Assembly: GCA_035537435.1 (NCBI GenBank) | Contig: DATLMC010000015.1 | Span: 36,860-100,859 of the forward strand | DNA from: Pyrinomonadaceae bacterium | Lineage (GTDB): Bacteria; Acidobacteriota; Blastocatellia; Pyrinomonadales; Pyrinomonadaceae | Length of the DNA: 64,000 bases | Direction of reading: 5' to 3' | Notes under the pieces: model-generated | What the model saw: the letters and a program-made list of their open reading frames with translations, nothing else | Told to the model about the DNA's origin: nothing | Databases searched by the model: none | Shown here: one piece after another, positions 228 to 57,993 of the stretch | How the letters are laid out: each line of letters opens with the position of its first letter | How positions within the stretch are numbered: position 1 is the first letter of the stretch | Made by a program: the position numbers and the translations under genes

Positions 228-2045
<1,818 letters not shown>

Positions 2046-2050
2046 ACAGG

Positions 2051-2192
2051 TTGTGGGGGCAGGGCTCGTCCCCGCCCGCTCGGGCGCGACGGCGCGAAAA
2101 GGAGAAGCGCGATCATTCAACCCTGAATGATCGCGCTTCGTGTTAAGCGATCACATGGATCGCTCGCGGGCAGGGACGAGCCCTGCCCCTAC
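2051..2192. repeat. REP/REPIN-like inverted-repeat element, copy 1 (long form)
   Basis: Arms TGTGGGGGCAGGGCTCGTCCCCGCCCGC and GCGGGCAGGGACGAGCCCTGCCCCTAC are in inverted orientation. An internal hairpin gcgcgatcattca/tgaatgatcgcgc is present. It lies directly 3' of typA. Confidence 0.85.
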
Positions 2193-2470
2193 GGCCCTCG
2201 CGCTTCCTGAGCGCAATCGTTTATCCTTCGCGCCCTTCGCCTTCGTCATCGTCACCCGGCTGATAAACCTCGTAGCCCGTCGCGTCGTCGTAGTAGTAAT
2301 CGCCCGGCTCGCGCCCGCCCTCGGTGTGCGGCGGCGGGGCGGGTTTTGGTGTATCATCCGGCGCACGCTCTTTCATCAAAGTCCTCCCGCCGCGCGAAAT
2401 CCGTGGTCGTGATTTCCTCGCGTGGGTTGAATGTTAGCCCCATCTGATCCCCGAAGTAAAAAGGTGCAGC

Positions 2471-5125
<2,655 letters not shown>

Positions 5126-19091: not shown

Positions 19092-20078
19092 TCACTTTTC
19101 TCTATCGGCGAAGATCGAGCCGACGCGGCGGAAGCGTTCCTCGCTCGCGCGCACCTGCTTGAGGAAGCCGGGCATGTTCGTTGCAGTCCACTCAGCGATC
19201 CGCGGCTGCCGACCGTCGGCGTCCGTCAAGCCGTACTCGCGCGCCAGCGTCCACGAGCCGAAAACTTTGCCCGACTTCTTCAGCACCTTCGGATCGGCCG
19301 CGAGCGCCGCGACGCCGCGGCCGACGAGCAGCGGCGTCTCCGACTCGATGAAGGAAGGGTGTTTCTTCGCGCCGTCGCGCCAGTTCTCCTCGGTCACGCC
19401 GAGGTGTTCGAGCATCGCCTCGGAGCGCAGGAAGCCCGGCGAGACGGCGACCGCCGCGACACGGTGGCGTCGCAGCTCCTCGGCAAACGCGAAGGCGAGG
19501 CGGATGACCGCGGCCTTGACGAAGTCGTAGAAGAATTGACCGCGGTAGTAGAGCCCGTCGCCGTCCGTGATCTCGACGACGAGCCCGCGCTTCTGCCCGA
19601 CCATCAGGGGCACGCCGTGGCGGCTCGTGATGACGTGCGAGAGCACCGCGCGCTCGATCATCTTGAGACCCTTTTCGAGCGAGCACTCCCAGAAGGGCTT
19701 GCCCCACTCGGTCAGGTGGTCGCCGCCCCACACGTCGTTGACGAGCACGTCGAGGCGACCCTGCTCGCGCTCGACGCGGCGGAAGAGCGCGCGCACCTCC
19801 CGCTCGTCGGTGTGATCGACCCGCGCGTGAACGCCTACGCCGCCGTGCGCCGAGACCATCTCGGCCGTCTCTTCAATCGTCTCCGGGCGCGCATCCGGGT
19901 CGAAGGCGTTCGCCTTCGTCCTCCTCTTCGCGATCCTTTTACCGCGCACGCTCCGGCCCGTGCAGTAGACAGTAGCGCCCGCCTCGCCGAGCGCGCGGGC
20001 GATGCCGCGGCCCGCCCCGCGCGTCGCGCCCGCCACCACCGCGACCCTGCCTTCGAGCGATCCGGTCTTGCGTCCCAT
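19092..20078 (-). CDS. SDR-family oxidoreductase with a C-terminal extension
   Basis: AVVAGATRGAGRGIARALGEAGATVY Rossmann motif. RBS GGGAGGG. Confidence 0.85.
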   Translation of the reverse strand: MGRKTGSLEGRVAVVAGATRGAGRGIARALGEAGATVYCTGRSVRGKRIAKRRTKANAFDPDARPETIEETAEMVSAHGGVGVHARVDHTDEREVRALFRRVEREQGRLDVLVNDVWGGDHLTEWGKPFWECSLEKGLKMIERAVLSHVITSRHGVPLMVGQKRGLVVEITDGDGLYYRGQFFYDFVKAAVIRLAFAFAEELRRHRVAAVAVSPGFLRSEAMLEHLGVTEENWRDGAKKHPSFIESETPLLVGRGVAALAADPKVLKKSGKVFGSWTLAREYGLTDADGRQPRIAEWTATNMPGFLKQVRASEERFRRVGSIFADREK

Positions 20079-20090
20079 CGCGCCCTCCCG

Positions 20091-21083
20091 TCAGCGCGCC
20101 GCCGCCGCCCCGCCCCGCGCGGGCCGTTCCTCTCCGAGGTACTGCCTGCCGCGCCGCGCGATCCCCTCCAGCCATTCGACGTGCCGCTCCACGCCCGTCC
20201 TCATCCACTTCATCGAAGGGATGACGTTCTCCGCGAAGTGCTTGATTAGATCGGGCCGGCGGCCGTCGTAGTCCGTGAATCCGTACTCACGCGCCAGCTC
20301 GTAGGAGCTAGTGATGTCACCCGTGCGTTCCATGACTTTCCGATCCTGCGCGAGCGCGGCGACGGCGCGGCCGATGAAGAGCGGCGACTCGGATTCGAGG
20401 AAGTTCGCGTCCTTCTTCGCGCCGTCGCGCCAGTTCTCTTCGGTGACGCCGAAGTGTTCGAGCATGAACTCCGCGCGCAGGTAGCCCGGCGTGATCGCCA
20501 CGGCCGCGACGCGGTGCTTGCGCAAGTCCTCCGCCAGCATCACGGCGAGCCCCTTCAACGAAAACTTGACGAGCTGCGCCAGGATGTTGCCCCCGCAGAA
20601 GAGCAGATCGAACTCGGTCACTTCGACGATCAGACCGCGCCGCCGCCTGATCATGAGCGGCGCGGCGTACCTGGCGGTGATGACGTGCGAGAACAGCGCG
20701 TTCTCTAAGATCGCCACGCCGTTCGTCAGATCGGTCTCGCAGAGGGAAGTCCACCCGGCCATCCTCATGTCCGTGCCCGCGACGTTGTCCGCGAGCACGT
20801 CGAGTCGCCCCTGCTCCCTCTCGACGCGCTCGAAGAGGGCGCGCACTTGCGCCTCGTCCGTGTGATCGACCTGCGCCGCGATGCCGACGCCGCCCGACTC
20901 GTTGACCATCCCCGCGGTCTCTTCGATGGTCTCCGGCCTGCCGTAGGGCGAAGGGTGGCCTTCGACGCTGCGACCCGTGCAGTAGACGGTCGCGCCCGCC
21001 TCGCCGAGCGCGCGCGCGATGCCGCGCCCCGCGCCGCGCGTCGCGCCCGCCACCACCGCCACCTTGCCTTTCAAACTCGCCAT
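20091..21083 (-). CDS. SDR-family oxidoreductase (tandem paralogue of 19092-20078)
   Basis: The same AVVAGATRGAGRGIARALGEAGATVYCTGRS motif and a collinear alignment with its neighbour. AAGGAGG precedes ATG 21083. Confidence 0.85.
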   Translation of the reverse strand: MASLKGKVAVVAGATRGAGRGIARALGEAGATVYCTGRSVEGHPSPYGRPETIEETAGMVNESGGVGIAAQVDHTDEAQVRALFERVEREQGRLDVLADNVAGTDMRMAGWTSLCETDLTNGVAILENALFSHVITARYAAPLMIRRRRGLIVEVTEFDLLFCGGNILAQLVKFSLKGLAVMLAEDLRKHRVAAVAITPGYLRAEFMLEHFGVTEENWRDGAKKDANFLESESPLFIGRAVAALAQDRKVMERTGDITSSYELAREYGFTDYDGRRPDLIKHFAENVIPSMKWMRTGVERHVEWLEGIARRGRQYLGEERPARGGAAAAR

Positions 21084-21182
21084 CACGCGCCTCCTTCTCC
21101 GACTTGCGGCAAGTTTACCGAAAACGCGGTCGGGTAGTCTTGGCGTTTTTTGATGCGGGACGGGAGAACCCCCGCCGCCGGC

Positions 21183-22949: not shown

Positions 22950-23539
22950 CGCGCGCCCCGCAATCCGTTCATGCCCGCCCGCCCGTGTCTCCGCATCGAC
23001 CGCGCCGCCGTTCTAAATGATCCACGCGTGTAAGCGCGAACGAGTCGACGACATCGAAGCAAGGATTCCCACGCATTGAATCATAGAATCATAAGCTCGC
23101 CGGTTGGATCGTCCACTAAAGACGAGGGGCGCGTGACGCCCAAGCGATCCCGCGCCGGGCGAGTCGCGTTAAATCTACACCGCGGGGGAGTAGGGTGGAA
23201 GCCTGAACGCCGGGCCGCCGAGTTGACCGGGCCGTCAGGCGCGCTCTCGGCTCAAACATCACTACGTATCTGCCTATCGGGGCTGCGGCGAGGGCGACAC
23301 GGAAACAATGCACCGGGTGTTCGATTCCAGTAACCCGCCCGCGCCGCCGGGACGCCCGCCGACAGTGCCGAAGCCCGGCTGTTAACACTTGTACGCCGCC
23401 GCGACGGCTGAGCCGGCAGGGCACGATAGTTGCCACACTGACGAATGACTCCCACTAATCAACTCTCTCCGACGGTGTGTGTAGTCGTTAACCGAAATGC
23501 TGAATAAGTGAAATCTAACTTCAAGGAAAGGGTTGAACC

Positions 23540-23965
23540 ATGAAAAAGTTACTTCTGCTGAGCGTCGCCGCGCTGCTTCTGGCCGGCTCGACCGAGGCGT
23601 TCGCGCAGGGTCGCATCCGCGGCGTACGCAACAACGACCGTCAAGACCGCCGGCGCGTCCTGCGGGGGATTCGCTCCGGGCAGATCACGCGCGAAGAGGC
23701 CCGTCAGATACGCGAACGCGAGCGGCAGATTCGCGCCGAGCGGCGCGTCTATCGCGCGGACGGCACGATCACGCGCGAGGAGCGGCGCGAGATTCGCCGC
23801 GACGAGCGCGGACAGGATCGCTACATCCGCCAGCAACGCCGCGACGACGACCGCCGCCCTCGCTACAACAACGTCCGCAATGATCGTAGGCGCGGCAACG
23901 GCTACTACCGGCGCGGGGCCGGCTCGCCGAGCCACCCGGTCTTCGGGAGGCGCAACCGCTATTAA
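23540..23965 (+). CDS. Secreted, extremely Arg-rich repeat protein
   Basis: Signal peptide MKKLLLLSVAALLLAGSTEAFAQ, then ITREEARQIRERERQIR / ITREERREIRRDERGQDR repeats. RBS AAGGAAAGGG. Confidence 0.55.
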   Translation: MKKLLLLSVAALLLAGSTEAFAQGRIRGVRNNDRQDRRRVLRGIRSGQITREEARQIRERERQIRAERRVYRADGTITREERREIRRDERGQDRYIRQQRRDDDRRPRYNNVRNDRRRGNGYYRRGAGSPSHPVFGRRNRY

Positions 23966-24152
23966 CAGGGGCGTCTACGATTGCCATCTCGGCAGAGAGG
24001 CCGCGTGCGTTCGGCGCACGCGGCCTCTCTTTTTGGCAGCCGCTCAGTAACGACGGCGCCGAATTCAGACAGCCCGCGTCGCGGGGGGCGGCGTGAGAAG
24101 GCTCACATCGCCGCGTCCGGTCGAACGGCCCGCCGGGCGCGCCACGGGGCGC

Positions 24153-24314
24153 TCACCTTCGCTTCGGGGGAAGAGTCTCCCCGCACTTCTGGCAGGGCAC
24201 CGCCTCGTTCTTCTTCTCCTTCGGCACGATCTGTTTCCGCCCACACTTCGGGCACCGCCGCGCCAAAGTCTCGGCCACCGTGTGAGCGATCACCCAAGAG
24301 AATATCGGATTCAT
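24153..24314 (-). CDS. Small zinc-ribbon protein (53 aa), absent from the ORF track
   Basis: My translation: MNPIFSWVIAHTVAETLARRCPKCGRKQIVPKEKKNEAVPCQKCGETLPPKRR, with CxxC..x17..CxxC. The ATG lies 8 nt after the yitT-like stop on the same strand. Confidence 0.4.
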   Translation of the reverse strand: MNPIFSWVIAHTVAETLARRCPKCGRKQIVPKEKKNEAVPCQKCGETLPPKRR

Positions 24315-24321
24315 AGCGCCC

Positions 24322-25239
24322 TCAGTGCAGAACTCGCCTCTTTACTATCCCGCCGCTCACGTCAGAGATCGGGTGGACGATAATAAAGGGGGCTTCGTCT
24401 ATCTCCCTGGCAATGTTCTTAACATTCCCGATTTCCAGCCGTGTCACGACGCAATACAGAATATCCTGCTCCGCCCCCGACCGGCCGCCCCGGCCCCTGT
24501 AGACCGTGACGCCGCGGTTCAAGTCGCGGATGATCGCCGCCTTGATCTCCTCGCTCCTGTCGGAAACAATGATCACGGCGGTGTACTCCTCGATCCCGTG
24601 AATCAGAAAATCGATCGTTTTCGACGCCGCGAAATAAGTGAGGATCGAGTAGAGAGCCGATTCGATGCCGAGAAAAAAAGCGGCGGCCGAGAAAATAAAA
24701 ATATTCAGGATGAGGATCACGTCGCCGACCTTCAACAGGTGGCTGCTTTTGCTGACCAACAGCGCGGCGATCTCCGTCCCGTCCAGGACCGCGCCGCCGC
24801 GGATGGCGAGGCCGATGCCCCCGCCGATGAAGAAGCCGCCGAACACGGCGGTTAAAAGTTTGTCGGGCGTAACGTCGGGGTACTTGACGAAGACGAGGCA
24901 GACGGACAGGCCCGCAATCGCCAGCGCACTTTTGACGGCGAACTTCCTGCCGATCTGGCGATAGCCGAGGGCGATGAACGGGAGGTTGATGACCGGAATC
25001 AGAATCGCCAGCGGGAACCCGAGCACGTCCGAGAGCAACATGGAGACGCCCGTCACGCCGCCGTCGATGAAGCGGCTCGACAGCAGAAATCCTTTCAGCC
25101 CCATCCCCGCCGAAAGAATACCTAAAACGATGAGAAGGATACTGACTGACTCTCGAACCAGTGCGCTCATGTGGTAAGGATAGTCGCTTACGTTATGACT
25201 CTCAAACCCGGAAACGCCCGCCGCCGGAATTAAGCCCAC
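24322..25239 (-). CDS. YitT-family membrane protein (DUF2179 C-terminal domain)
   Basis: Polytopic N-terminus. The C-terminus GVTVYRGRGGRSGAEQDILYCVVTRLEI...IVHPISDVSGG is typical of DUF2179. The real start may be ATG 25170. Confidence 0.8.
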   Translation of the reverse strand: MGLIPAAGVSGFESHNVSDYPYHMSALVRESVSILLIVLGILSAGMGLKGFLLSSRFIDGGVTGVSMLLSDVLGFPLAILIPVINLPFIALGYRQIGRKFAVKSALAIAGLSVCLVFVKYPDVTPDKLLTAVFGGFFIGGGIGLAIRGGAVLDGTEIAALLVSKSSHLLKVGDVILILNIFIFSAAAFFLGIESALYSILTYFAASKTIDFLIHGIEEYTAVIIVSDRSEEIKAAIIRDLNRGVTVYRGRGGRSGAEQDILYCVVTRLEIGNVKNIAREIDEAPFIIVHPISDVSGGIVKRRVLH

Positions 25240-25354
25240 GCGCGCGCGAACGGCGTTGAATTTTCACCGCTCGGAAGCGTAGGGGAGCGGACGGCCGCCG
25301 GCGCAAAGGGTCGGGTGAGTTGTTATGCCCGTGTCGGGCGCGGAGAGTAGGGCT

Positions 25355-25747
25355 TCAGCGATCTTCTACGAGCGTTCCCTGGTGGTAGACGATCTTCCAA
25401 CCTTCGGCCGTGCGACGCCAGATCGTCGACCGGCGGGTAAGGCGGCCGCCCTGATTCAGCGTGTAGGTGAGAAGGTAGTTGTCGGCGGCAATCTCAAGGC
25501 AGTGGAAGTCGTGAGTCTGCCAGTCGTCCTGAGCCCGGTTCGCGTAGCGTCTCTCAAGTTCGTCCAACACGTACTGTCGGCCATAGCGTCGCCCCGACGC
25601 GCCGACTTCCCAGAACGTGGCTTCCGTCATGCGCTCGAAGTCGGCGCGCGTCGTCCCGAACTCCGGGCGATGGAAGATCGGCTCACGCCTTATGAGTTCG
25701 TCCAGCACGCCCGAAATCTTCGGGTCTGTGATCAGGTTCGGTTCCAT
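25355..25747 (-). CDS. NTF2-like / DUF4440-family protein
   Basis: 130 aa. FWEVGASGRRY...LLTYTL......RRSTIWRRTAEGWKIVYHQGT matches the SnoaL/DUF4440 pattern. Confidence 0.6.
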   Translation of the reverse strand: MEPNLITDPKISGVLDELIRREPIFHRPEFGTTRADFERMTEATFWEVGASGRRYGRQYVLDELERRYANRAQDDWQTHDFHCLEIAADNYLLTYTLNQGGRLTRRSTIWRRTAEGWKIVYHQGTLVEDR

Positions 25748-26118
25748 GTTCGCCGAGTACCCTTTCCGGAAGACTTCCCCTCGACTCTGCCCTTACAACG
25801 AGGGGGGTGGGAGCCCAGAATAATTCTTTGTGTGTGTCCTGACGCACAGACGGCCGCTTGAGCATGGCTTACTCTGCGACATCTCACTCCTACAACAAAT
25901 GCTTACCCGACTAAGCCCGAGTCACCAGGGAGAGAAAACTGGTAACGGTGTCAGTAGCGAGTCGTTCATCTATACCTGACCGGACGCAGGTATAGTCCCC
26001 GGAACTCACGTCCTTTTCCTCGTAAACACTTTTCCCACGCCCCCATTCTATCCGGCGAGCGGCCCGGGTTCACACCAACGCGCCGCCATGATACTTATAT
26101 GATTTCAGGGGCGGAAAA

Positions 26119-26838
26119 ATGGCGCTGACACTGAAGACTCGTTTCAAATACTCAAAACTCAACACGCTGGTCTTGCGCGCCGGATACGGGTGGGGGCAAG
26201 TTACCACGAGTGGCGAAGTCTGCACCTACACCTGCGACAAGGGTATGAAAAAGCCGCCGGCAGAAATAGAAACGATCAGAGAGATCATCTCGCTGCGTAT
26301 ACAATTTTGTACCGGCCTCGACCTCGCCGCGACCTTCCTCATGCTGAGCAAAATGTGGAGCGTGAACAGGCTTCAACTGAAGAGCTGCGGCATAAAAGAG
26401 CTGCCCCCGGAGGTCGGCGCGCTCACCAACATCGTGGATTTCGACCTCGGCAACGAAGGCCAAAGCCCTAATGAGTTCACGACCTTCCCGCCCGAGTTCG
26501 CTTCCATGAAACGGCTACGGTATCTCAGGCTACACCACAACCCTCAGTTCGAAGCGTTCCCGCCGGAGGCGGCGAAAATGACCAGCTTAAGGCACATCAG
26601 CTTAAGGGGCTTTCGTTCGCTGCCGAAAAATATCGAGTTATTCCCGAACCTGGAAGATCTAAAGTTAACTTACAGCGGCATCGTCCCGAGGCAGGTCTTG
26701 CCGCTCATCGCCCGCCCGAACGGCCTCAAGTCCGTCACGGTCGGCGAGGCGTATTACGACATGTTCAAAGAACGCACCGCGGAGTACCCGGACTTTTCCG
26801 TCACCGAGGAGCAAACCTCACTCCGGGGGGATTATTGA
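26119..26838 (+). CDS. Leucine-rich-repeat (LRR) protein
   Basis: LQLKSCGIKELPPEVGALTNIVDFDL, MKRLRYLRLHHNPQFEAFPPE, MTSLRHISLRGFRSLPKNIELFPNLEDLKL. Low GC. It is the only plus-strand gene in the island. Confidence 0.6.
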   Translation: MALTLKTRFKYSKLNTLVLRAGYGWGQVTTSGEVCTYTCDKGMKKPPAEIETIREIISLRIQFCTGLDLAATFLMLSKMWSVNRLQLKSCGIKELPPEVGALTNIVDFDLGNEGQSPNEFTTFPPEFASMKRLRYLRLHHNPQFEAFPPEAAKMTSLRHISLRGFRSLPKNIELFPNLEDLKLTYSGIVPRQVLPLIARPNGLKSVTVGEAYYDMFKERTAEYPDFSVTEEQTSLRGDY

Positions 26839-26867
26839 AATCGTTCCTCGCGGGAACCCGGGCAGCA

Positions 26868-26957
26868 ATCCAACGCCCGCCGTCACCCGCGCCCCTGCGC
26901 GACGTGCATGAGAGTCACCGTGATGAGCGTCGGGTACATGCCGTCGTCGGGCGCGCC
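26868..26957. repeat. Island repeat copy iv (attC-like imperfect palindrome)
   Basis: atccaacgcccgccgtcacccgcgcccctgc...catgccgtcgtcgggcg. The central roughly 70 nt are about 80% identical to copy iii. The minus-strand end reads GTTGGAT. Confidence 0.5.
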
Positions 26958-26971
26958 GCTGGAGTCCATGT

Positions 26972-27505
26972 TCAATCGTTGGTGATGTCTTCTGTATTAC
27001 GAGAAGCTCCGCCTGTGTGCCTTTGGATCGTTCCCAACTCGCGCGTCGTCGTTTCAGTAACACTTACCGGCTCAACCAGGCGCGGCATTGCCTCAACGTC
27101 AAAACCCACGCCTTTCACACCCCCCGGCAACATCTGACGCTCCTTCATCAGGTGCAGCCGACTTTCACGCTCCTTTAACTTCTTGAAGAAGCCGCCACGA
27201 ATCAGATTCGCCAACCCAACTCCGCCGACGGTCAGCGCGCCGATCACGAAGGAAACCCAGATCCAAAGAAAAACCGGGTTCGCCAGATGCGGTAAAGTGA
27301 CGGCCCCAAAGACGATGATGAAGTTTGTCAGCATCAGGACTGTCGCCATCATCAACCCGATGCCCGTAATCTCTCGCTTCTCACGCCGAAGTTGATTATC
27401 GCTATTGGTAAGCAAGTCGGTGACAAGACCGAGCGGTAAGCCGCAGCGCGCACAGAAGCGCATATCGTCGGAAACTTGGCGGTGACCGCATTGTGGACAA
27501 AACAT
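26972..27505 (-). CDS. Zinc-ribbon domain membrane protein
   Basis: MFCPQCGHRQVSDDMRFCARCGLPL followed by 3 hydrophobic helices. GGAGG lies before the ATG. Confidence 0.6.
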   Translation of the reverse strand: MFCPQCGHRQVSDDMRFCARCGLPLGLVTDLLTNSDNQLRREKREITGIGLMMATVLMLTNFIIVFGAVTLPHLANPVFLWIWVSFVIGALTVGGVGLANLIRGGFFKKLKERESRLHLMKERQMLPGGVKGVGFDVEAMPRLVEPVSVTETTTRELGTIQRHTGGASRNTEDITND

Positions 27506-27600
27506 CTAAACCTCCAGGAAGTAACATCGTTAAGTTTGTCAAAACCTGCGTCCGGTACGTCAGTAAATTTATAGCCTATGATGCTCGTCCGTCCGGGAAC

Positions 27601-27700
27601 ATTAAACGAAGCGCCCGACGCCCGGCCTCGCCCGCGCCCCTGCACAAGATGCATGAGAGGGGCCGTGATGGGGCGTCGGGTGTATGCCATTGCTATGCGG
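27601..27700. repeat. Island repeat copy iii
   Basis: gcgcccgacgcccg pairs with ggggcgtcgggtg. The core cccgcgcccctgc..tgcatgagag..ccgtgatg..cgtcgggt.atgcc is shared with copy iv. It overlaps the last codons of the VOC gene. Confidence 0.5.
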
Positions 27701-28118
27701 CGTCCGCGCCGCCATCGACCTCCGCGTCTTTCTCTCTCTGTCGTTCGCCGAACCAGTAGCAGAGGCCGTCCGGCGCGACCACGTAAAAGACCTTCCACGA
27801 CGTGTCGTCGTGTCGCTCGATGTCGAATCCGGGCTCGCCCTTTTCCAGGCCGTTCGCCTTCAACTCGGCGAACGCCGCTTCGACGCTATCAACCTCGAAG
27901 GCGCAGCCGTCCTGGGACGGATCGCCGCCGTTCTCGGCCAAGCCTATCCGGATGCCATCTCTGCCGAGCACTGCCGACCTGTGCGGCGACCCGCCCCGCG
28001 ACAGAATCCGGAAGCCCATGACGGCCTCGTAAAAGGGGAGGGCGGCTTCCAAGTCCCCCACGGGCAGGTTCATGTTGTCGCCCTGATACCCCCGGGCGCT
28101 TTTGACTTCTGCCTTCAT
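27693..28118 (-). CDS. VOC (glyoxalase/bleomycin-resistance/dioxygenase) family protein
   Basis: 141 aa. LPVGDLEAALPFYEAVMGFRI...HRSAVLGRDGIRIGL...FEVDSVEAAFAELKANG matches the paired beta-alpha-beta-beta-beta pattern. Confidence 0.7.
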   Translation of the reverse strand: MKAEVKSARGYQGDNMNLPVGDLEAALPFYEAVMGFRILSRGGSPHRSAVLGRDGIRIGLAENGGDPSQDGCAFEVDSVEAAFAELKANGLEKGEPGFDIERHDDTSWKVFYVVAPDGLCYWFGERQREKDAEVDGGADAA

Positions 28119-28227
28119 TCCGGCCTCCAGAGCCTACGGGTAAGCATTCCGATACGTCCCACTCGTGTGATTAAGGATGAACTGTTCTCGACGGCAACGT
28201 CTAGCACCCACGACACCCCACGCAGAC

Positions 28228-28318
28228 GCATAACGCCCGGCATCAGCGGTGCGACTTCAACTTTGGAGGTAAGGGGCGCGCCGGGTACGCGTCCGCCGCA
28301 TGCCGACGCTGGGCGCGG
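28228..28318. repeat. Island repeat copy ii
   Basis: gcataacgcccggcatcagcgg ... gcatgccgacgctgggcg. It shares taacgcccggcatca and gcatgccg-N5-gggcg with copy i. Confidence 0.5.
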
Positions 28319-28337
28319 TCTACGTAACCACAGACGG

Positions 28338-28829
28338 CTACTTACTACTATCAGCCCGAACCATATCAATCACTATGGCACTAGACAGGATTAGCACGTC
28401 GTCTTCGTCCTCTACGACATCCACGCCGTACGTGTCAGTCCAGGAGAACCACTGCCTTGATACCGTAGCAACCGCCCGCTCCCCTCTGCTGAACGTAAAC
28501 TCCAGGTGCCAGAAGTCACCTTCGGCGACCAGATCATCAGGGCCGGGCACGTCAACCGTGAACACGTGCTTGAAGAATGAGAACAGTTCTTTCTTAACGA
28601 CGGCAAAAAGCTGTCCGTCTCTGTAGATCTCATAAGTCGGCCCCCACGCGAACAGTTTCTGCCGGATGAAGGCGAGTTCGTTCCCCGACATATCTCGGAA
28701 CGTCAGTTGATGACCGAAACTAAAAGCCGCCCCCTCAACCGAGAATACCTCTTGACCCTGGTCGTTCTTAATATGGAAAGCGCCGCCCAAACTGAAGAGC
28801 CTCTGTTTCATCAGATAACGCATAATCAT
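28338..28829 (-). CDS. LURP-one-related / YxjI-like (tubby C-terminal-like fold) protein
   Basis: MKQRLFSLGGAFHIKNDQGQEVFSVEG...FRDMSGNELAFIRQKLF...YEIYRDGQLFAVVKKE..F...F....EGDFW..EF is collinear with the B. subtilis YxjI pattern. Confidence 0.65.
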   Translation of the reverse strand: MIMRYLMKQRLFSLGGAFHIKNDQGQEVFSVEGAAFSFGHQLTFRDMSGNELAFIRQKLFAWGPTYEIYRDGQLFAVVKKELFSFFKHVFTVDVPGPDDLVAEGDFWHLEFTFSRGERAVATVSRQWFSWTDTYGVDVVEDEDDVLILSSAIVIDMVRADSSK

Positions 28830-28856
28830 TCCTCGTGCATATCTAAACCATACAGC

Positions 28857-28960
28857 ATCTAACGCCCGGCATCACCCGCCGGTAGACATCTGCGGAGGCT
28901 TTCGCTCTTGCCAATGACACCGGGCTCATGCCGGCCGGGTGCATGCCGTTGTCGGGCGGC
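28857..28960. repeat. Island repeat copy i
   Basis: atctaacgcccggcatcacccgccgg ... ccggccgggtgcatgccgttgtcgggcg. The long imperfect stem has single-base bulges. The minus-strand end GTTAGAT lies about 28 nt before the next ATG. Confidence 0.5.
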
Positions 28961-29063
28961 GGATTCATTAGAAGAGGTCGGGCGAGCATTACGGGGGCAT
29001 TGAACTGCCTTACTTAATCCCGCCGCCCATTGCCGAAGCGCGCAGCTTAACCTGTCGCGGAAC

Positions 29064-29663
29064 TTACTTCTTACTTTTTTGCTTGAGCGGTCTGTCGAGG
29101 GAGTCTACGACCGTCGCGATACGCGGAGCCTCCCGGAGCAGCGCTACCTTGCGACGCGCCCCGTCCACGAGCACGTCGGCGTTCTCGAAAACCTTCTTAA
29201 CTCGCTCGGCTGACTCAGGCGTAAGATTCTTTAGCGGTATGAGGATCGGGCCTTCGTCCAAGAAGGGCTGCCCGGCCACGTCCGCGGGGACGCCCGCCCG
29301 CGCCTCATTACTGAACGCCCCGAGGGGGATGGCGTTGAGATCGCGGTAGAGCGTGTAAGCCTTCTTCTTGCCATGATACATGGACACGAGGTCAGCGCCG
29401 CCACGGCTTTGTGCCCACTCCTCCACGGCGATCCCGTCGCCCCGTGTCGTAATCCAGACCCTCACTAGAGGGTTGGGAGGGTTCATGCCGGCCGGGCAAA
29501 GTATATAATCGAAGTAAACGTAGTCGTGCTCGATCAGTTCCCAGTTCCGCTCCGACCGCTCGCCCTGCTCGCACTTGGACTGCTTCTGTTGCCCGAATCC
29601 AGTGCCCGCCGGGGCTACGGCTAAACCTGCGCCGAACAGAGATGTCAGAAAAATCTTGCGCAT
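29064..29663 (-). CDS. Secreted hypothetical protein
   Basis: ATG 29663 is preceded by GAGGAGG. Signal peptide MRKIFLTSLFGAGLAVAPAG. No recognised domain. Confidence 0.5.
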   Translation of the reverse strand: MRKIFLTSLFGAGLAVAPAGTGFGQQKQSKCEQGERSERNWELIEHDYVYFDYILCPAGMNPPNPLVRVWITTRGDGIAVEEWAQSRGGADLVSMYHGKKKAYTLYRDLNAIPLGAFSNEARAGVPADVAGQPFLDEGPILIPLKNLTPESAERVKKVFENADVLVDGARRKVALLREAPRIATVVDSLDRPLKQKSKK

Positions 29664-29699
29664 GGACGCCTCCTCTGGAACCACTGTCACCCTTCAGCC

Positions 29700-29801
29700 G
29701 CCTAACACCTTAGACTAGCCGCGGCCGCCCGACGCCTGAATTAACCGGCGAGCTATCAACTTCAAAGACAAGAGACCCGCTGATCGCGCGTCCGGTTGAA
29801 T
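29700..29801. repeat. Island repeat copy v (most divergent)
   Basis: Plus strand gcctaac ... gttgaat, matching RYYYAAC ... GTTRRRY. It shares ccgcccgacgcc with copy iii. The internal pairing is weak. Confidence 0.35.
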
Positions 29802-29807
29802 GAGTTG

Positions 29808-30326
29808 TTATGACCCGCGTTGTCGCTCTCTGTAGTAGTGTTCGCGGACTTTCGCTTGCCACTTTAGAAACACCTCAGTCAAGGCTGATTTATTTTCCTT
29901 AGTCATTCTCGGTTTGGGCATTTTGTGCACAAAGACATCAGTGACTCCGCGGTCAAAAATCCCGCCTGATATGCCGTCTTCTCTGAAAACCAAGAGTGGG
30001 AGACCTAACGAATAAAGAATGCCTGACTCCAAATGATTCCAAGCTGTAGGAAATGTTACGGAGCGGGCGGTTCTCTGTTCTTTTGTACCGCGCTTCCAGA
30101 TAATTGACCTGCTCATAGCTTGCTCGAACCCAAGTATTACTCCGCCCGAGCAATGAGTCGCAAGTACGTACACTTCCCTTAAAGGCAGATCCGTCGGGTA
30201 ATCTGATCTGCCAAGCGCACGTGGCTCAAACCTAAGCATGTCCAGCTCCCTCAAAATAATGCGCCTGCAATTCTCTTGCGTTGGGTTGAGAGCAGTAGGA
30301 CAAGATACAAATACTGGTATTCTCAT
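29808..30326 (-). CDS. Hypothetical protein, possible TIR-like / nucleoside 2-deoxyribosyltransferase-like Rossmannoid fold
   Basis: 172 aa and the lowest GC in the window. MRIPVFVSCP...VILGFEQ...PTAWNHLESGILYSLGLPLLVFRE resembles the NDT/TIR-like pattern. Unverified. Confidence 0.45.
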   Translation of the reverse strand: MRIPVFVSCPTALNPTQENCRRIILRELDMLRFEPRALGRSDYPTDLPLREVYVLATHCSGGVILGFEQAMSRSIIWKRGTKEQRTARSVTFPTAWNHLESGILYSLGLPLLVFREDGISGGIFDRGVTDVFVHKMPKPRMTKENKSALTEVFLKWQAKVREHYYRERQRGS

Positions 30327-30352
30327 AAATCACATCCTTCGCAGGTGCATAA

Positions 30353-31915
30353 CTAGTATTCTACCGCGGGAGTGACGCGCAGGTCGCGCCCGGTCATCTC
30401 GGCGGGCTGTGGGATGCCGAGGAGCGCGAGCATGGTGGGCGCAACGTCTTCGAGCGCGCCGCCTTCGCGGAGGGTCGCGCCGCGCGCGGCTTCGTCGACG
30501 AGGAGGAGGGGGACGGGGTTGGTGGTGTGTGCGGTGTGCGGCTCGCCCGTCGCGGGGTCGATCATCTGCTCGCAGTTGCCGTGATCGGCCGTGATGATCG
30601 TGCGGCCCCGCGCCGTCTTGAGCGCCTTCGTAATCCAGCCCAGACAAGTATCGACGTGCTGCACCGCCTCGATGGTCTTTTCGAGATTGCCGGTGTGGCC
30701 GACCATGTCGGGGTTGGCGAAGTTGATGATGAACACGTCCGTCTCGCGCTCGTCTATCGCGCGCAGGATTTTGTCCGTGAGCGGGTAGGCCGACATCTCC
30801 GGCTTGAGGTCGTAGGTGGCGACCCTCGGCGAGGGCACGAGGAGCCGCCGCTCGTGCGCGAACTCGCGCTCCGCGCCGCCGTTGAAGAAGTAGGTCACGT
30901 GCGCGTACTTCTCCGTCTCCGCGAGACGGTAGTTGCGGACGCCGACGGCGGCGAAGACTTCCGCCAGGATGTTGACGGGCTGCGTCGGCGGGAAGGCGAC
31001 GGGCAGCGGGAACGTCTTGTCGTAGACGGCGAAGCAGACGAAGTGCGCGTGCGGGCGGTTCGGGGTGGGGAACTCCTCGAAGCCCGCGACGGCGAGCGCG
31101 TCCGTGATCTGGCGCGCGCGGTCGGCGCGGAAGTTGAAGAAGACGACCGAGTCGCCGTCAGAAATCGTGGCGACCGGACTGCCGTCGCCGCGCGTGACGA
31201 CGATGGGCTCGACGAACTCGTCCGTCACGCCCCGCGCGAAAGAGTTTCTGATCGCCTCGACCGCGTCGGCCGCGCGCGCGCCCTCACCGTTAACTAGAAG
31301 TTTGTACGCGCGCTCCGTCCGCTCCCAGCGCTTGTCGCGATCCATCGCGTAGTAGCGACCGACGACCGACGCGACTTCGCCGACGCCGATCTCGGCGCAC
31401 TTGTCGCGCATGGCGGCGACGTAGCGGTCTGCGGAAGAGGGCGGCGTGTCGCGCCCGTCGAGGAAGCAGTGGACGTAGACCCGCCGAAGCCCGCGCTTCT
31501 CGGCCATCCGCAGCAGCGCGTAGGCGTGCTCCTGCGATGAGTGGACGAGGCCGTCGGAGGTGAGGCCGATGAGGTGGAGCGCGCGGTCGTGCCTGGCGGC
31601 GCTGTCGAGCGCGGCGTTAAGAGCGAGGTTCGAGAAGAACTCGCCCGTCTTGATCTCGTGGTTGATGCGCTCAAGGTCTGTGCGCACGACGCGCCCCGCG
31701 CCCATGCAGAGGTGCCCGACGTTGGAGTTGCCCATCACGCCCGCCGGCAGCCCGACGCACTCGCCCGAAGCCTCGATCAGAGTGTGCGGGTATTTTTCTA
31801 ACAGCTCGTCGTAGAAGGGCATCGAGGCTAACGCGACGGCGTTGCCCTCCCGGCGCGTGCTGTAGCCGAAGCCGTCGAGGATGATGAGCGCGAGCGGTCC
31901 CTGTCTGTCAGTCAA
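30353..31915 (-). CDS. gpmI: 2,3-bisphosphoglycerate-independent phosphoglycerate mutase
   Basis: 520 aa. [22 protein letters not shown] motifs. Confidence 0.95.
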
Positions 31916-35630: not shown

Positions 35631-37370
35631 TTAGGGCGCGGAGGCGAAGGCCAGGTCGGTGATGAGGAGCGCGCCGGAGGCCGTCTGGTCGAACTGGAGT
35701 TTGACGGAGCGGATGTCGGTCAGGTTGACGCCGGTGAAGGAGGCGAGCGGGATGCGCGCCGTGTTCAGGACGACCTTCGGGACGGGGCCGGTCGTGCCCG
35801 GCGGGTAGAAGAGGGCGGTCGAGACGCTGCCGACGAGCACCGAGCTTTGCGCGCCCGTGCCGTCCGTGAGGACGACCGAGAAGCTCTGCGCCGCGTTCGT
35901 CGCGTTGCGCGTGTCCTCGAAGTTGACGCTGACGCGGAACTGCAAAGCCTGGAAGCCGCTCACGTCGCGCGAGCCGAGCGGCAGGTCGTTCGTGTAGCTC
36001 GCGCCGCCCGCCGCCCAGCCCGTGCGCAGTTGACTCAAGCCGCGCAATGTAGAGCGCGCGCTTGGAACGGTGTGCGGCTGGCGGCTGGTAGACTGCGCGG
36101 CAGTCAGGCAGTGCTGCGGCTCGGGCGAGTTGCCGCCGCACAGATCGTGCGGCGTGAGCCCCGTCTGCGTGGACGCGCCGCCCAGCGTGTCGGTCGTGAG
36201 GTTCGCTGCGGTCAGCAGGCGATTCACGTCGCGCCGCTTCGTCGCCGCGTCGGGCGCGTGGTAGGAGACGTGCAAATCGGTCGTCTGCGCCGAAGCGGGG
36301 GGCGGAGCCGCGCCCGTCAAGATCGGAGTGAACTGCGTCTCGCCGCCGACGTAGACGCGGAAGAACGCGGAGAGGTAGGCGACGCCCGTCCCGCGCTGCT
36401 GCGCGCTCGTGAGCCGATGGTTGCCCGCGCCCGTGCCGCACTGCGCGTCGCTCTTGCCGCTGCTGACGAAGGAGGTCCAGTCGTCCGCCGTGGCCGCGGA
36501 GAACATGCCCGGCGTCCAGACGGTGTTGTAGAAGTTGTGGTTCGCGCCCATCACCTGAATGGTGTGCTTCGCGCCGGTGTCGCCCGCCACGTTGTAGCGC
36601 GCGTCGTCGTAGAAGTGGACGCCCTGATTGTCACTCACGTCGCCGTCGCAGTAGGGGAGGACGACGGCGAGCGCGGAGTTGTTGACGACGGGCCGGTTGA
36701 AATCGACGGGCGCGAGCGGGAAGACGCCCTTGATCGTGTAGGGCGAGCCGAGGGATGCGTTGTAGAGGTAGTGCTTGACGACGCCCTCGCCGCCGCGCGA
36801 GTGGCCCATCGTGCCGACGCGCGTGAGATCGATCTTGCCGACGAACTTCGTGCCGAACGGGGCCGCGCCGGTCGTGTTGAAGGTGTTGAGCTGATTGAGG
36901 TGGCGCTGGACGAGTTCGGCGCGCGCCTGCATGCCGAGGTCGTTGACGTTGTTGTCGAAAGCGTTGATGCCGTTGGCGCTCACGGAGACGACGATGTAGC
37001 CGTTGCTCGCCAGAATTTGCGCGACGTAGTCGTAGCCCTGGTAGCTGGGGATCGGCTGCTGGTTGCTCGGGCAGGGCCAGCGAAGGCTCGCGGCCGAGCC
37101 GCGGAAGCAGGTGGCGTGACGCCCGTGGAGGAAGACGACGACGGGGAAGGGGCCGCCCGTCAGATCGGTCGGGTGGTGGATCGACGCCTTCACCTCGACG
37201 GCCGAAGGGAAGCCGGTCGGCTGGAACGCGAGGTTGCCGTAGTCGTACTCCTCGCGCGTGACGGCGCGGGGGCCGGTCGTGCCGGGGTCGGGCGTCTGCG
37301 CCGCGGCGCTGAGCGCGCAGCAGGCGACGAGGAACGACATGAGGGTGAGTGTCTTGAGAGTGTTGCGCAT
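35631..37370 (-). CDS. Secreted alpha/beta hydrolase (lipase / PAF-acetylhydrolase / PETase-like N-terminal half) with an uncharacterised C-terminal domain
   Basis: Signal peptide. Nucleophile elbow GHSRGGEG. 579 aa. Confidence 0.7.
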   Translation of the reverse strand: MRNTLKTLTLMSFLVACCALSAAAQTPDPGTTGPRAVTREEYDYGNLAFQPTGFPSAVEVKASIHHPTDLTGGPFPVVVFLHGRHATCFRGSAASLRWPCPSNQQPIPSYQGYDYVAQILASNGYIVVSVSANGINAFDNNVNDLGMQARAELVQRHLNQLNTFNTTGAAPFGTKFVGKIDLTRVGTMGHSRGGEGVVKHYLYNASLGSPYTIKGVFPLAPVDFNRPVVNNSALAVVLPYCDGDVSDNQGVHFYDDARYNVAGDTGAKHTIQVMGANHNFYNTVWTPGMFSAATADDWTSFVSSGKSDAQCGTGAGNHRLTSAQQRGTGVAYLSAFFRVYVGGETQFTPILTGAAPPPASAQTTDLHVSYHAPDAATKRRDVNRLLTAANLTTDTLGGASTQTGLTPHDLCGGNSPEPQHCLTAAQSTSRQPHTVPSARSTLRGLSQLRTGWAAGGASYTNDLPLGSRDVSGFQALQFRVSVNFEDTRNATNAAQSFSVVLTDGTGAQSSVLVGSVSTALFYPPGTTGPVPKVVLNTARIPLASFTGVNLTDIRSVKLQFDQTASGALLITDLAFASAP

Positions 37371-42609: not shown

Positions 42610-44274
42610 CTAGCGGGCGGCGAGGTTCGCGATGGCGGCGACGAGTTCGGCGGACGTAACCGGCTTCGGCAGGTGGAGCTGGAAGCCCGCGCGCAGGGCG
42701 CGCACCCGATCCTCGGCGTGCGCGTAGGCGGTGAGGGCCGCGGCGGGCGTGCGGCCCCCGCGCTCGGGCGGGAGCCCCCGCACTTTACCGATCAGCGCGT
42801 AGCCGTCTTCGCCGGGCATCCCGATGTCGGCGAGCAGCACGTCGGGCCGCTCGCTCTCGATGGCCGCGAGCGCCTCGGCGGCGGAGCCGGCGGTCAGCGC
42901 CTCGGCGCCGCACTCGGAGAGCGTCCGCGCGAACAACTCGCGCGCGTCCGGCTCGTCGTCCACGACGAGCACGCGCACCCCCGTCAGGCTCTCGCAGTCG
43001 AGCGCTTCGGCCCCGCGCGGGTCGCTCGCGCCCGCGCGCCCGGACGCGACGACGGCGCGCTGCGCCACGAGCGACGAGAGCGGCAGCCTGATGGTGAAGG
43101 TCGTGCCGCGCCCCACGCCCGCGCTGTCCGCCGAGACTTCGCCGCCGTGCAGCTCCGTGAGCTGCCGCACGATTGCCAGGCCGAGGCCGAGGCCGCCGTA
43201 GGTGCGCGTCGTGGCGGCGTCCGCCTGCCGGAAGCGATCGAAGACGTGCGGCAAAAACTCCGGCTCGATGCCGATCCCCGTGTCGCCGACGCTAATCTCG
43301 ACGCCCGACGCGGCGCGGGCGAGGCGCACCTCGACGCGCCCGCCCGCGGGCGTGAACTTGACGGCGTTGTTGACGAGGTTCCAGACGATCTGCTGGAGGC
43401 GATCGGCGTCGCCCAACACCGCCCCCGCCGCGGCGTCGAGCGCGTGGCGCAGCTCGATGCCCTTCGACTCGGCGGCCGGGCGCGCGGCGTCGAGGGCCGC
43501 GCCGATCACGGCGTCGAGATCGACCGGGCGCACGTCGAGCAGGAGCTTGCCCGAGATAATGCGCGACACGTCGAGCAGGTCTTCGACGAGGTGGAGCTGC
43601 GCCAGCCCGTTGCGCTCGATCACTTCGAGGGCGTGCGCGGCGATCTGCTCGTCGGGCACGCCGCGGCGCAGCAGTTGCGCCCAGCCGAGGATGGCGGTCA
43701 GGGGCGTGCGCAGCTCGTGCGAGACGGTGGCGAGAAACTCGTCCTTGAGTCGGCTGTTGGCTTCAGCGTTGAGGCGCGCCGCCTGCTCGCTCTTGAGCAG
43801 TTGCTCGCGCTCCTCGCGCGCGCGAGAGAGCGCGTCGAGGTGATCGCGCACCTCGTACTGGCGCAGCCGCGCGCGCAGCGCCGAGCGGACGACGCTCAAG
43901 ATCGTGACGATGTGGGCGGGCCGCTCGATGAAGGTGACGTTGCCCGTCTCGCCGAGCGCGGCGAGGGCCGAGAGCGTGTCGGCGGCGGCGGCCCCGCTTC
44001 GCGCGAGGACGATGAGCGGCAGATCAGACCACGGGGCTTGCGCGCCGAGCGTCGCGGCGAGCGCGCGCGCGCCGGCCTCGGTCAGCGCCTCCCGCGTGAT
44101 GAAGGCCGCCCCCGCGCCGCGCTCGACCTCGCGGCACAGCCCCTCGACGCCCGCGCACTCCTCGGCGGCGATCCCCTGCTCGCTGAGCGCCGCGCACGCG
44201 AGCGCGGCGTCGCGCCCGACGGGCGCGACGACGAGCACGCGCGTCTCGGCGTTGAGGGCTTCAGCCTTCGGCAT
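42610..44274 (-). CDS. Hybrid sensor histidine kinase: N-terminal pseudo-receiver, HisKA, HATPase_c, C-terminal receiver
   Basis: H-box SHELRTPLTAILGW, N-box NLVNNAVKFT, G-boxes DTGIGI and GGLGLGLAIV. The C-terminal REC has VLVVDDEPD..LLADIGMPGEDG..LTAY..LPKP. The N-terminal REC-like domain lacks the acidic pocket (VLVVAPVGRD). Confidence 0.9.
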   Translation of the reverse strand: MPKAEALNAETRVLVVAPVGRDAALACAALSEQGIAAEECAGVEGLCREVERGAGAAFITREALTEAGARALAATLGAQAPWSDLPLIVLARSGAAAADTLSALAALGETGNVTFIERPAHIVTILSVVRSALRARLRQYEVRDHLDALSRAREEREQLLKSEQAARLNAEANSRLKDEFLATVSHELRTPLTAILGWAQLLRRGVPDEQIAAHALEVIERNGLAQLHLVEDLLDVSRIISGKLLLDVRPVDLDAVIGAALDAARPAAESKGIELRHALDAAAGAVLGDADRLQQIVWNLVNNAVKFTPAGGRVEVRLARAASGVEISVGDTGIGIEPEFLPHVFDRFRQADAATTRTYGGLGLGLAIVRQLTELHGGEVSADSAGVGRGTTFTIRLPLSSLVAQRAVVASGRAGASDPRGAEALDCESLTGVRVLVVDDEPDARELFARTLSECGAEALTAGSAAEALAAIESERPDVLLADIGMPGEDGYALIGKVRGLPPERGGRTPAAALTAYAHAEDRVRALRAGFQLHLPKPVTSAELVAAIANLAAR

Positions 44275-57918: not shown

Positions 57919-57993
57919 GTCAGACCGCCTGCCGCAAGCGGGCGGTTGATTAAAGCGAGAAGAACCCGCCCGCTTGCGGCAGGCGGTTCTGAC
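57919..57993. other. Very long inverted repeat (about 26-bp arms) between the two ATPase/regulator genes
   Basis: gtcagaccgcctgccgcaagcgggcgg ..20 nt.. ccgcccgcttgcggcaggcggttctgac, with one bulged T. Confidence 0.7.

Follow-up and report, generated by a model that had tools for sequence, protein, structure and literature searches.

Background

Directly 3' of the stop codon of the gene gpmI, in the chromosome of an uncultured soil Pyrinomonadaceae bacterium (Acidobacteriota; GenBank assembly GCA_035537435.1, contig DATLMC010000015.1), lies a low-GC island of short genes separated by related imperfect palindromes. Does this island constitute a series of integron cassettes lacking their integrase, or a set of unrelated repeats carried in with foreign DNA? 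We addressed this question in the window, i.e. the 64,000 nucleotides at positions 36,860 to 100,859 of the contig, to which all coordinates refer unless one of the fetched comparison loci (labelled L015, L053, etc.) is named. Our analyses support, with a probability of about 0.9, the assignment of the island to the CALINs (attC-site clusters without an integrase): integron cassettes ending in attC sites, with no integrase gene nearby.

By definition, a CALIN has two or more attC sites on one strand, separated by less than 4 kb, and no integrase gene (intI) nearby; on average it contains about five sites (Cury 2016, PMC4889954). The five attC sites of the island share a strand and lie well within this distance of one another, and no IntI-like sequence was found in the 64 kb. 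A preliminary description, made from the letters of the window, had already proposed a cassette array of this kind, and the results presented below support it.

Results

The attC sites of the island and their detection by models

Five sites were delimited from R'' to R' box on the minus strand, each following a minus-strand open reading frame (ORF). Their length (85-101 nt) falls within the 57-141 bp of the attC criterion, their spacing is 629-870 nt, and their recombining bottom strand corresponds to the plus strand of the window:

29727-29813 (-): attC-1, divergent subtype; R'' TCATAAC (29807-29813), sharing bases with the ORF stop; GTCGGGC (29727-29733) as R' from homology
28857-28957 (-): attC-2, 101 nt; R'' GCCCGAC, R' GTTAGAT
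28228-28314 (-): attC-3, 87 nt; R'' GCCCAGC, R' GTTATGC
27613-27698 (-): attC-4; R'' GCATAGC, which overlaps the stop of the ORF; R' GTCGGGC; mutations in both conserved triplets
26868-26952 (-): attC-5, 85 nt; R'' GCCCGAC, R' GTTGGAT

These positions are almost exactly those at which the preliminary description had placed the repeats, and exact matches to their half-sites are confined to the island. The description had assumed one repeat family, which holds for four sites, the repeat at 29.7 kb being a divergent subtype. Its choice of R' boxes was retained at the sites with GTTAGAT, GTTATGC and GTTGGAT, and was replaced at 27.6 kb and 29.7 kb, where it had picked GTTTAAT and GTTAGGC farther downstream, by the R' assigned through homology, GTCGGGC; GTTAGGC (29700-29706) is a possible alternative R' of attC-1.

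To collect seed sequences, one genome per species was scanned with a gapped pattern that had been designed on three of the window sites (2, 3 and 5). It yielded 71 loci, about 40 of which were metagenome-assembled genomes (MAGs) of Pyrinomonadaceae or other Acidobacteria with clearly homologous sequences. A covariance model (R1) was built from 40 copies, all in other genomes, and was searched against the window with filters off. Four strong matches of 51-69 bits and a fifth of 16.3 bits were obtained, all on the minus strand of the island: attC-5 (69.3 bits, E 7e-15, model match 26864-26957, two L-box pairs being non-standard in the model alignment), attC-2 (65.7 bits, E 5e-14, 28853-28962), attC-3 (55.8 bits, E 1e-11, 28224-28319), attC-4 (51.1 bits, E 2e-10, 27609-27703) and attC-1 (E 0.055, 29723-29816). 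The best R1 match outside the island reached 20.7 bits, above the score of attC-1; it is a GC-rich hairpin (43298-43362, plus strand, GC 0.80) without L box and GTT, and probably a chance match. No R1 match with E<0.01 was found in 111 kb of further loci (nine with distant gpmI genes, 67-76% identity, and three unrelated ones, L077-L079), and a metagenome scan with gpmI revealed no attC among the matches listed (relatives of at most 76% identity).

The second line of evidence is independent of our seed. We rebuilt the hidden Markov model (HMM) component of the published Acidobacteria attC covariance model (Ghaly et al. 2021, PMC8352920, supplementary file) and ran it by nhmmer. Its two best matches in the window were attC-1 (29732-29810, minus strand, 20.0 bits, E 4.4e-5, model positions 4-101) and attC-2 (28858-28952, minus strand, E 0.02); with this HMM filter alone attC-3 reached E 1.8, and the remaining window sites were not found. 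Across the fetched loci it identified 72 sites in those of Acidobacteria and zero in the others. Rfam, which does not contain an attC family, gave no match anywhere in the window. Two sequence subtypes can be distinguished, a GGCATGCACCCGAC-type and a AACTCATT...CCGGTTAAT-type. From its HMM match, attC-1 can be assigned to the Acidobacteria type as published (R''-AACTC-RTT...CCGGTTAA-spacer-R'), the other four representing a related subtype.

Related arrays and their link to an integrase

Outside the window, R1 detected 156 sites in 40 Acidobacteria loci, co-oriented within each locus and a few hundred bases apart. Their density reaches 18 sites per 8 kb (14-18 per 8 kb in L056 and L015), and in the arrays of L015, L050, L056 and L037 all sites point the same way. 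The link with an integrase is provided by L053, where a 318-aa IntI (TIGR02249 "integron integrase", 476.6 bits for a cut-off of 265), 54% identical to the IntI1 query, is divergent from the first cassette and its attC; positions 1778-3674 of this locus hold a complete start of an integron (intI, attI, cassette). A truncated intI stands beside at least 15 attC sites in L050 (265-8000), and an intI fragment beside 11 sites in L037. L053 and L050 also have in common a conserved attI-like segment ending TTAGC-G/TTRG (the slash marks the crossover point or junction here and below). Taken together, these loci show that large, sedentary chromosomal integrons, homogeneous in their attC family, are present in MAGs of Pyrinomonadaceae. 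Within the window the repeats are found only in the island, and elsewhere in co-oriented arrays, one of them beside a bona fide intI.

Two contigs labelled as cyanobacterial MAGs (Chroococcidiopsidaceae and Synechococcales) also contain near-consensus attC sites of Pyrinomonadaceae type (L026 218-317 and L058 2679-2775), which could result from misbinning or transfer.

In the window itself, tblastn searches with IntI1 and with the L053 IntI found no intI. The place where intI and attI would lie is occupied by gpmI, and the array does not classify as a complete integron. The similarity of the left junction to the attI of the family (L053, L050) is weak and unconvincing.

Consensus and hairpin structure of the family

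The alignment of 139 sites gave the consensus R'' RYYYAAC and R' GTTRRRY. Along R'' the prevailing bases are G/A, C/T, C, T/C, A (121), A (134) and C (135), and along R' they are G (131), T (136), T (132), A/G/C, G, G/A and C/T. The family begins with GCCYAAC-AAC-GGCATG and ends with ATGCC-GGGC-GTTRGGC. Positions left free in the seed pattern proved to be conserved, and the five bases that had seemed bulged are AACAA in most copies. In the related genomes the bottom strand folds into a hairpin whose R box (GCCYAAC/GTTRGGC) is separated by a few unpaired spacer bases from the L box, which carries two extrahelical bases.

The preliminary description had reported a one-sided bulge of 5-6 nt and had been unable to place the R'', L'', L' and R' boxes. 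The former turned out to be an alternative pairing register (CGCCC/GGGCG), in which the bulged bases are the R'' AAC and the spacer; the latter difficulty is resolved by the canonical consensus of the family, the boxes not being visible from the window sequence alone because its R'' boxes are mutated. RNAalifold also proposed the CGCCC/GGGCG register, which the GC-rich spacer permits; we set it aside, since the conserved AAC, its complementarity to R' and the canonical folds of the arrays fit the R box.

Most window copies have folding energies at chance level, so that the structural evidence was taken from covariation across the family. In the 139 sites, 92.2% of the cells are paired in the canonical structure and 17 of its 23 pairs show compensatory changes (282 compensatory cells, as opposed to 92 ± 7 in shuffled alignments), figures that come from an alignment fitted to the model and therefore favouring the structure; sliding the partner by 1-3 columns left at most 38% paired. 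Bottom strands of array members fold into the canonical hairpin, with z-scores of -2.8 to -5.3. An unpaired top-strand G (136/139) and A (132/139), nearly invariant and separated by a 6-bp stem, lie on the R''-L'' arm; they correspond to the extrahelical bottom-strand bases C16 and T23, on the arm opposite the cleaved AAC. This geometry agrees with that required for efficient recombination, i.e. a 6-bp stem and a T as the last extrahelical base (Nivina et al. 2016, PMC5027507). The first extrahelical base is C instead of the usual G, and in attC-2 the last one is C.

Apparent erosion of the window sites

Both AAC and GTT are intact in none of the four strong window sites, as compared with 108 of 131 sites (82%) elsewhere (Fisher p 0.0013). 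The R'' AAC is found only in attC-1, the others having GAC, GAC, AGC and AGC, and the R' GTT only in attC-2, attC-3 and attC-5, the crossover triplet being GTC in attC-1 and attC-4. Similarly, 3-4 of the seven R-box positions form Watson-Crick pairs in the window sites, while the mode is 5-6 elsewhere, and the four strong window sites rank 87th, 99th, 119th and 130th among 139 by R1 score. Their bottom strands fold with z-scores of -2.5 to +0.6, for most copies no better than shuffled sequence, as compared with -2.8 to -5.3 for array members. The triplet pattern fits mutated descendants of canonical sites. The array looks as if it had been eroding since its separation from the integrase and were now largely fossil. 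Given the loss of the R'' AAC, the GTC in two sites and the poor R-box pairing, excision is probably inefficient or lost, and present mobility is probably low.

The gpmI junction and its counterparts in relatives

The product of the window gpmI is 100% identical to a Pyrinomonadaceae MAG protein and 92-93% identical to those of several metagenomic relatives. In the four relatives with a 92-93% identical gpmI we found neither the island nor R1 sites, gpmI being followed by other small genes. The left end of the array coincides with the gpmI stop codon:

30347-30353 (-): left junction G/TTATGC; the stop codon TAG of gpmI ends with this G, and low-GC cassette DNA starts from TT

GTTATGC is an R' variant found among members of the family. 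In one relative, L075, the homology with the window stops at the last gpmI codons and resumes at window position 23009, just upstream of EamA, so that the differing region, from 30377 down to 23010, amounts to about 7.4 kb of lineage-specific DNA. The end of gpmI itself has been remodelled: its C-terminus differs in the window (30353-30377), the four close relatives ending in ...GRDLREA* or ...GRDLRGA*. Compared with L075, about 60 nt have been deleted, which has fused the gpmI ORF to the sequence that immediately precedes the cassette junction; a hairpin that follows gpmI in L075 (1866-1920) was lost in this deletion. The 15 nt GTAGAATACTAGTTA (30350-30364) are common to the window and L075, with divergence right after GTTA. 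This common junction is the only hint of repeated use of one site.

The first gene after the junction in L075 codes for an ankyrin-repeat protein. Arms resembling attC (ATCTAACAACTCATTGAGCCGGAC ... CGGGTTAATGCGGCGTTGGGC, about 220 nt apart) are found after this gene and before EamA; they are attC-like by eye and by alignment, fall below the thresholds of both models, and were not counted as sites. As a separate observation, all close relatives examined differ in what follows gpmI (e.g. L075 1866-4175 and L074 2246-3900), where genes for an ankyrin-repeat protein, a methyltransferase, the toxin-antitoxin pair BrnT/BrnA, or DUF1508 and DoxX are found. Farther along the window, two adjacent paralogous short-chain dehydrogenase genes (19110-20051 and 20254-21155) correspond to a single gene in L074 and L075.

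Gene content and distal end of the island

The island and the region distal to it contain the following features, the cassettes being oriented in the same way as eno and gpmI:

29808-30326 (-): cassette 1 ORF, 172 aa, GC 0.478, predicted TIR/NDT-like flavodoxin-type fold
29064-29690 (-): cassette 2 ORF, 208 aa, GTG start (ATG at 29663), hydrophobic N-terminus
28338-28829 (-): cassette 3 ORF, LURP-one-related (PF04525, E 3e-19)
27693-28118 (-): cassette 4 ORF, glyoxalase/VOC superfamily (PF00903)
26972-27505 (-): cassette 5 ORF, N-terminal zinc ribbon and membrane segment
26119-26838 (+): inverted LRR ORF, 239 aa, in the next cassette after attC-5
25355-25747 (-): DUF4440-like ORF, 130 aa
25209-25339 (-): possible degenerate terminal attC, low confidence, from half-site similarity; 5' arm GCCCGACACGGGCATAACAACTCACCCGACC, 3' arm GCTTAATTCCGGCGGCGGGCGTTTCCG
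23010-25208: region without counterpart in L075, with YitT (24322-25170, -), a 53-aa zinc-ribbon ORF (24153-24314, -) and a 141-aa ORF (23540-23965, +)

The five head-to-tail ORFs and the inverted LRR ORF lie where the preliminary description had placed them. The sharp drop in GC that it had noted is borne out by the values of the cassette ORFs (0.478-0.646) against those of eno, gpmI and the flanks (0.676-0.689), and its LURP-one, VOC/glyoxalase, zinc-ribbon and LRR labels are backed by Pfam (LOR, Glyoxalase/VOC, zinc-ribbon and LRR families). Its view that the LRR gene ends the series has to be abandoned, as the DUF4440 ORF and the possible attC remnant lie beyond. Its TIR/NDT-like label for the cassette 1 protein has no support from sequence families, with no match in Pfam, PADLOC or PDB sequences, and is upheld at the level of fold: the AlphaFold2 model (predicted local distance difference test, pLDDT, 82) matched TIR-STING, the SARM1 TIR, MilB, BcmB, DNPH1 and NDT in Foldseek (E 6e-5 to 5e-3).

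The cassette 1 protein, which carries no Pfam domain and belongs to a very conserved family, has 1,743 homologues of 62-97% identity in many bacterial phyla and one archaeal MAG. In three other contigs (L077 6001-7174, L078 and L079) the homologue is followed by a SLATT-domain protein, a neighbourhood that suggests a conflict-system origin for the cassette 1 protein, possibly as one half of a two-gene system. The cassette 2 protein had no family match in Pfam or PADLOC, none of the cassette proteins matched a defence family in PADLOC, and protein comparison revealed no cassette in common between the window and the fetched Acidobacteria arrays.

Towards the distal end, the DUF4440-like ORF may share the cassette of the LRR gene, or may form its own cassette whose upstream attC was lost. 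Between this ORF and the start of the inverted LRR gene lie 15 nt, GGCGGCGCGTTGGTG (26073-26087, -), which by eye resemble the 3' end of the attC family (L'-spacer-R') and may be the remnant of a lost attC. The 5' arm of the terminal candidate at 25209-25339 aligns with attC-1 and two L075 spacers; the candidate is attC-like by eye and alignment, scores below the thresholds of both models, and was not counted. No attC was detected in 23010-25208, where GC is 0.58-0.69. The half-site search also returned, far from the island, two exact inverted 17-mers CGCCCGCTTGCGGCAGG, 22 nt apart, forming a perfect hairpin (57928-57983).

Discussion

A probable array of integron cassettes separated from their integrase

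Our results support a CALIN origin of the island, derived from the attC family of Pyrinomonadaceae integrons. None of the three outcomes that the preliminary description had named as telling against a cassette array was observed: two attC models, R1 at four sites (51-69 bits) and the published HMM at attC-1 and attC-2, gave matches; the repeats are not dispersed over the 64 kb and form co-oriented arrays elsewhere; and the relatives do not carry the same gene set after gpmI, as seen in four contigs.

The island resembles the CALINs described by Cury (2016, PMC4889954) in having about five sites, neither intI nor an intI pseudogene, and cassettes with non-resistance or unassigned functions, and differs from them in its eroded R boxes and in starting at the stop codon of a housekeeping gene whose end has been remodelled. 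With the sedentary integrons on Acidobacteria chromosomes, which have a taxon-specific attC type (Ghaly et al. 2021, PMC8352920), it shares recognition of attC-1, attC-2 and the related arrays by the HMM of the published model, and an attC family that is homogeneous within the taxon; in contrast, the window has neither integrase nor attI, and holds two attC sequence subtypes. The superintegron of Vibrio cholerae, with its V. cholerae repeats (VCRs), is alike in having homogeneous attC sites of about 100 nt or longer, one per small co-oriented ORF. The 3' end of the VCRs, ...GGGCGTTA, is presumably the same as that of the family. The VCR array differs in host phylum, stem sequence, number of extrahelical bases (three in VCR, two here) and in its adjacent IntIA, which has no equivalent here. 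As for insertion at genomic attG or secondary sites (Loot et al., 10.1101/2022.09.11.507474), the G/TT of the left junction fits GWT and the array lies away from an att platform; here several cassettes instead of one are present, and the insertion event is a putative one.

According to established integron biology, an IntI encoded elsewhere would bind the hairpins and cut between the A and C of AAC; attC x attC recombination would excise cassettes, and insertion would take place at attI or at genomic sites of G/TT type. The cassettes would have come from a Pyrinomonadaceae-type integron, and may have entered together, on one circle that recombined with a GTT site, or stepwise at a site also used in L075. 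Any expression of these promoterless cassettes would most plausibly depend on read-through from eno-gpmI.

Several observations weigh against this assignment. Taken by itself, the window mostly does not show the defining triplets: the canonical R'' AAC is missing from all four strong sites and the GTT from two of the five. The seed pattern was derived from window sites 2, 3 and 5, whose scores are partly circular; this circular part is bounded by the chance pattern matches in other phyla, which do not exceed 26.3 R1 bits, and attC-4, outside the seed pattern altogether, yet reached 51.1 bits. Furthermore, the interval of the LRR and DUF4440 genes, together with the terminal remnant, fits poorly with a clean cassette pattern, and the search for intI covered 64 kb of a 69.4-kb metagenomic contig (JGI metagenome 3300039219).

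Alternative explanations

The window copies could be read as repetitive extragenic palindromic (REP) or miniature inverted-repeat transposable element (MITE)-like palindromes, or as terminators, brought along by foreign DNA and having nothing to do with integrons. They lie in intergenic spacers and form imperfect, GC-rich palindromes, four of the five lack the R'' AAC, and their most stable fold uses the non-canonical CGCCC/GGGCG register with its one-sided bulge. We regard this explanation as extremely improbable, since copies elsewhere are strictly co-oriented, one per small ORF, beside intI or its remnants; the consensus RYYYAAC...GTTRRRY comes with the canonical extrahelical geometry; the HMM of the published attC model recognises members of the family; and there are zero copies elsewhere in the window, unlike dispersed repeats. 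As to terminators, T-tracts are absent and terminator-like matches are not enriched, in a promoter and terminator scan that was itself of little informative value. It is also very unlikely, although slightly less so, that the island represents the far end of a complete integron, with the integrase immediately beyond our view. Rearrangements that break up integrons have produced some of the CALINs (Cury 2016, PMC4889954), and the window leaves a few kilobases of the JGI contig uncovered; however, the 64 kb yielded neither intI nor a remnant of it, nor any further tyrosine recombinase of IntI type, and the position 5' of the first cassette, held by intI and attI in L053, is filled by gpmI-eno, in synteny with the relatives.

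A different scenario concerns the present state of the array, which instead of a decaying CALIN might be a still-working satellite platform, where an IntI acting in trans swaps cassettes at a fixed site after gpmI (an attI-like site or attG hot spot) and the eno-gpmI promoter replaces Pc. The junction GTAGAATACTAGTTA common to L075, with divergence exactly after G/TTA followed by a different first gene, points in this direction, as do the attC-like arms after the ankyrin gene and before EamA in L075, the GTT kept in three window sites, the co-orientation of the cassettes with gpmI, and the deletion here of the hairpin that follows gpmI in L075. About 11% of array sites have GAC in R'', a variant that may be tolerated, and experiments have shown IntI to mediate insertion at GWT sites in the genome (Loot et al., preprint, bioRxiv 10.1101/2022.09.11.507474). 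We nevertheless consider this scenario unlikely: the junction is common to one relative only, the L075 sites are under the thresholds of both models, the three other close relatives have neither junction nor attC sites, the R boxes of the window are eroded, and the similarity between the junction and the attI of the family is weak. Equally doubtful is the related proposal that the junction (…GTAGAATACTAG/TTA) might be a recurrent, integrase-independent landing pad, at which an IntI acting in trans would have placed different cassettes in each lineage, with the promoter of the glycolytic operon serving for Pc. The CALIN assignment, with its partly decayed sites, remains the one that we prefer.

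Implications for integrons in Acidobacteria

CALINs are already well known, and the recombination sites of this copy look partly decayed; the island is one more beside the thousands catalogued, in a poorly studied soil phylum. Its cassettes are traceable to a homogeneous attC family of Pyrinomonadaceae, and its sites offer a worked example of decay, in which R-box triplets mutate and hairpins are destabilised once an array leaves its integrase. The family model and the box assignment allow such arrays to be annotated in Acidobacteria metagenomes. If the junction common to L075 reflects repeated use of the site, the locus would exemplify, in nature, the attG insertion route that has recently been described, and if the landing pad were real, it would constitute a natural "satellite integron platform" on an attG-type site.

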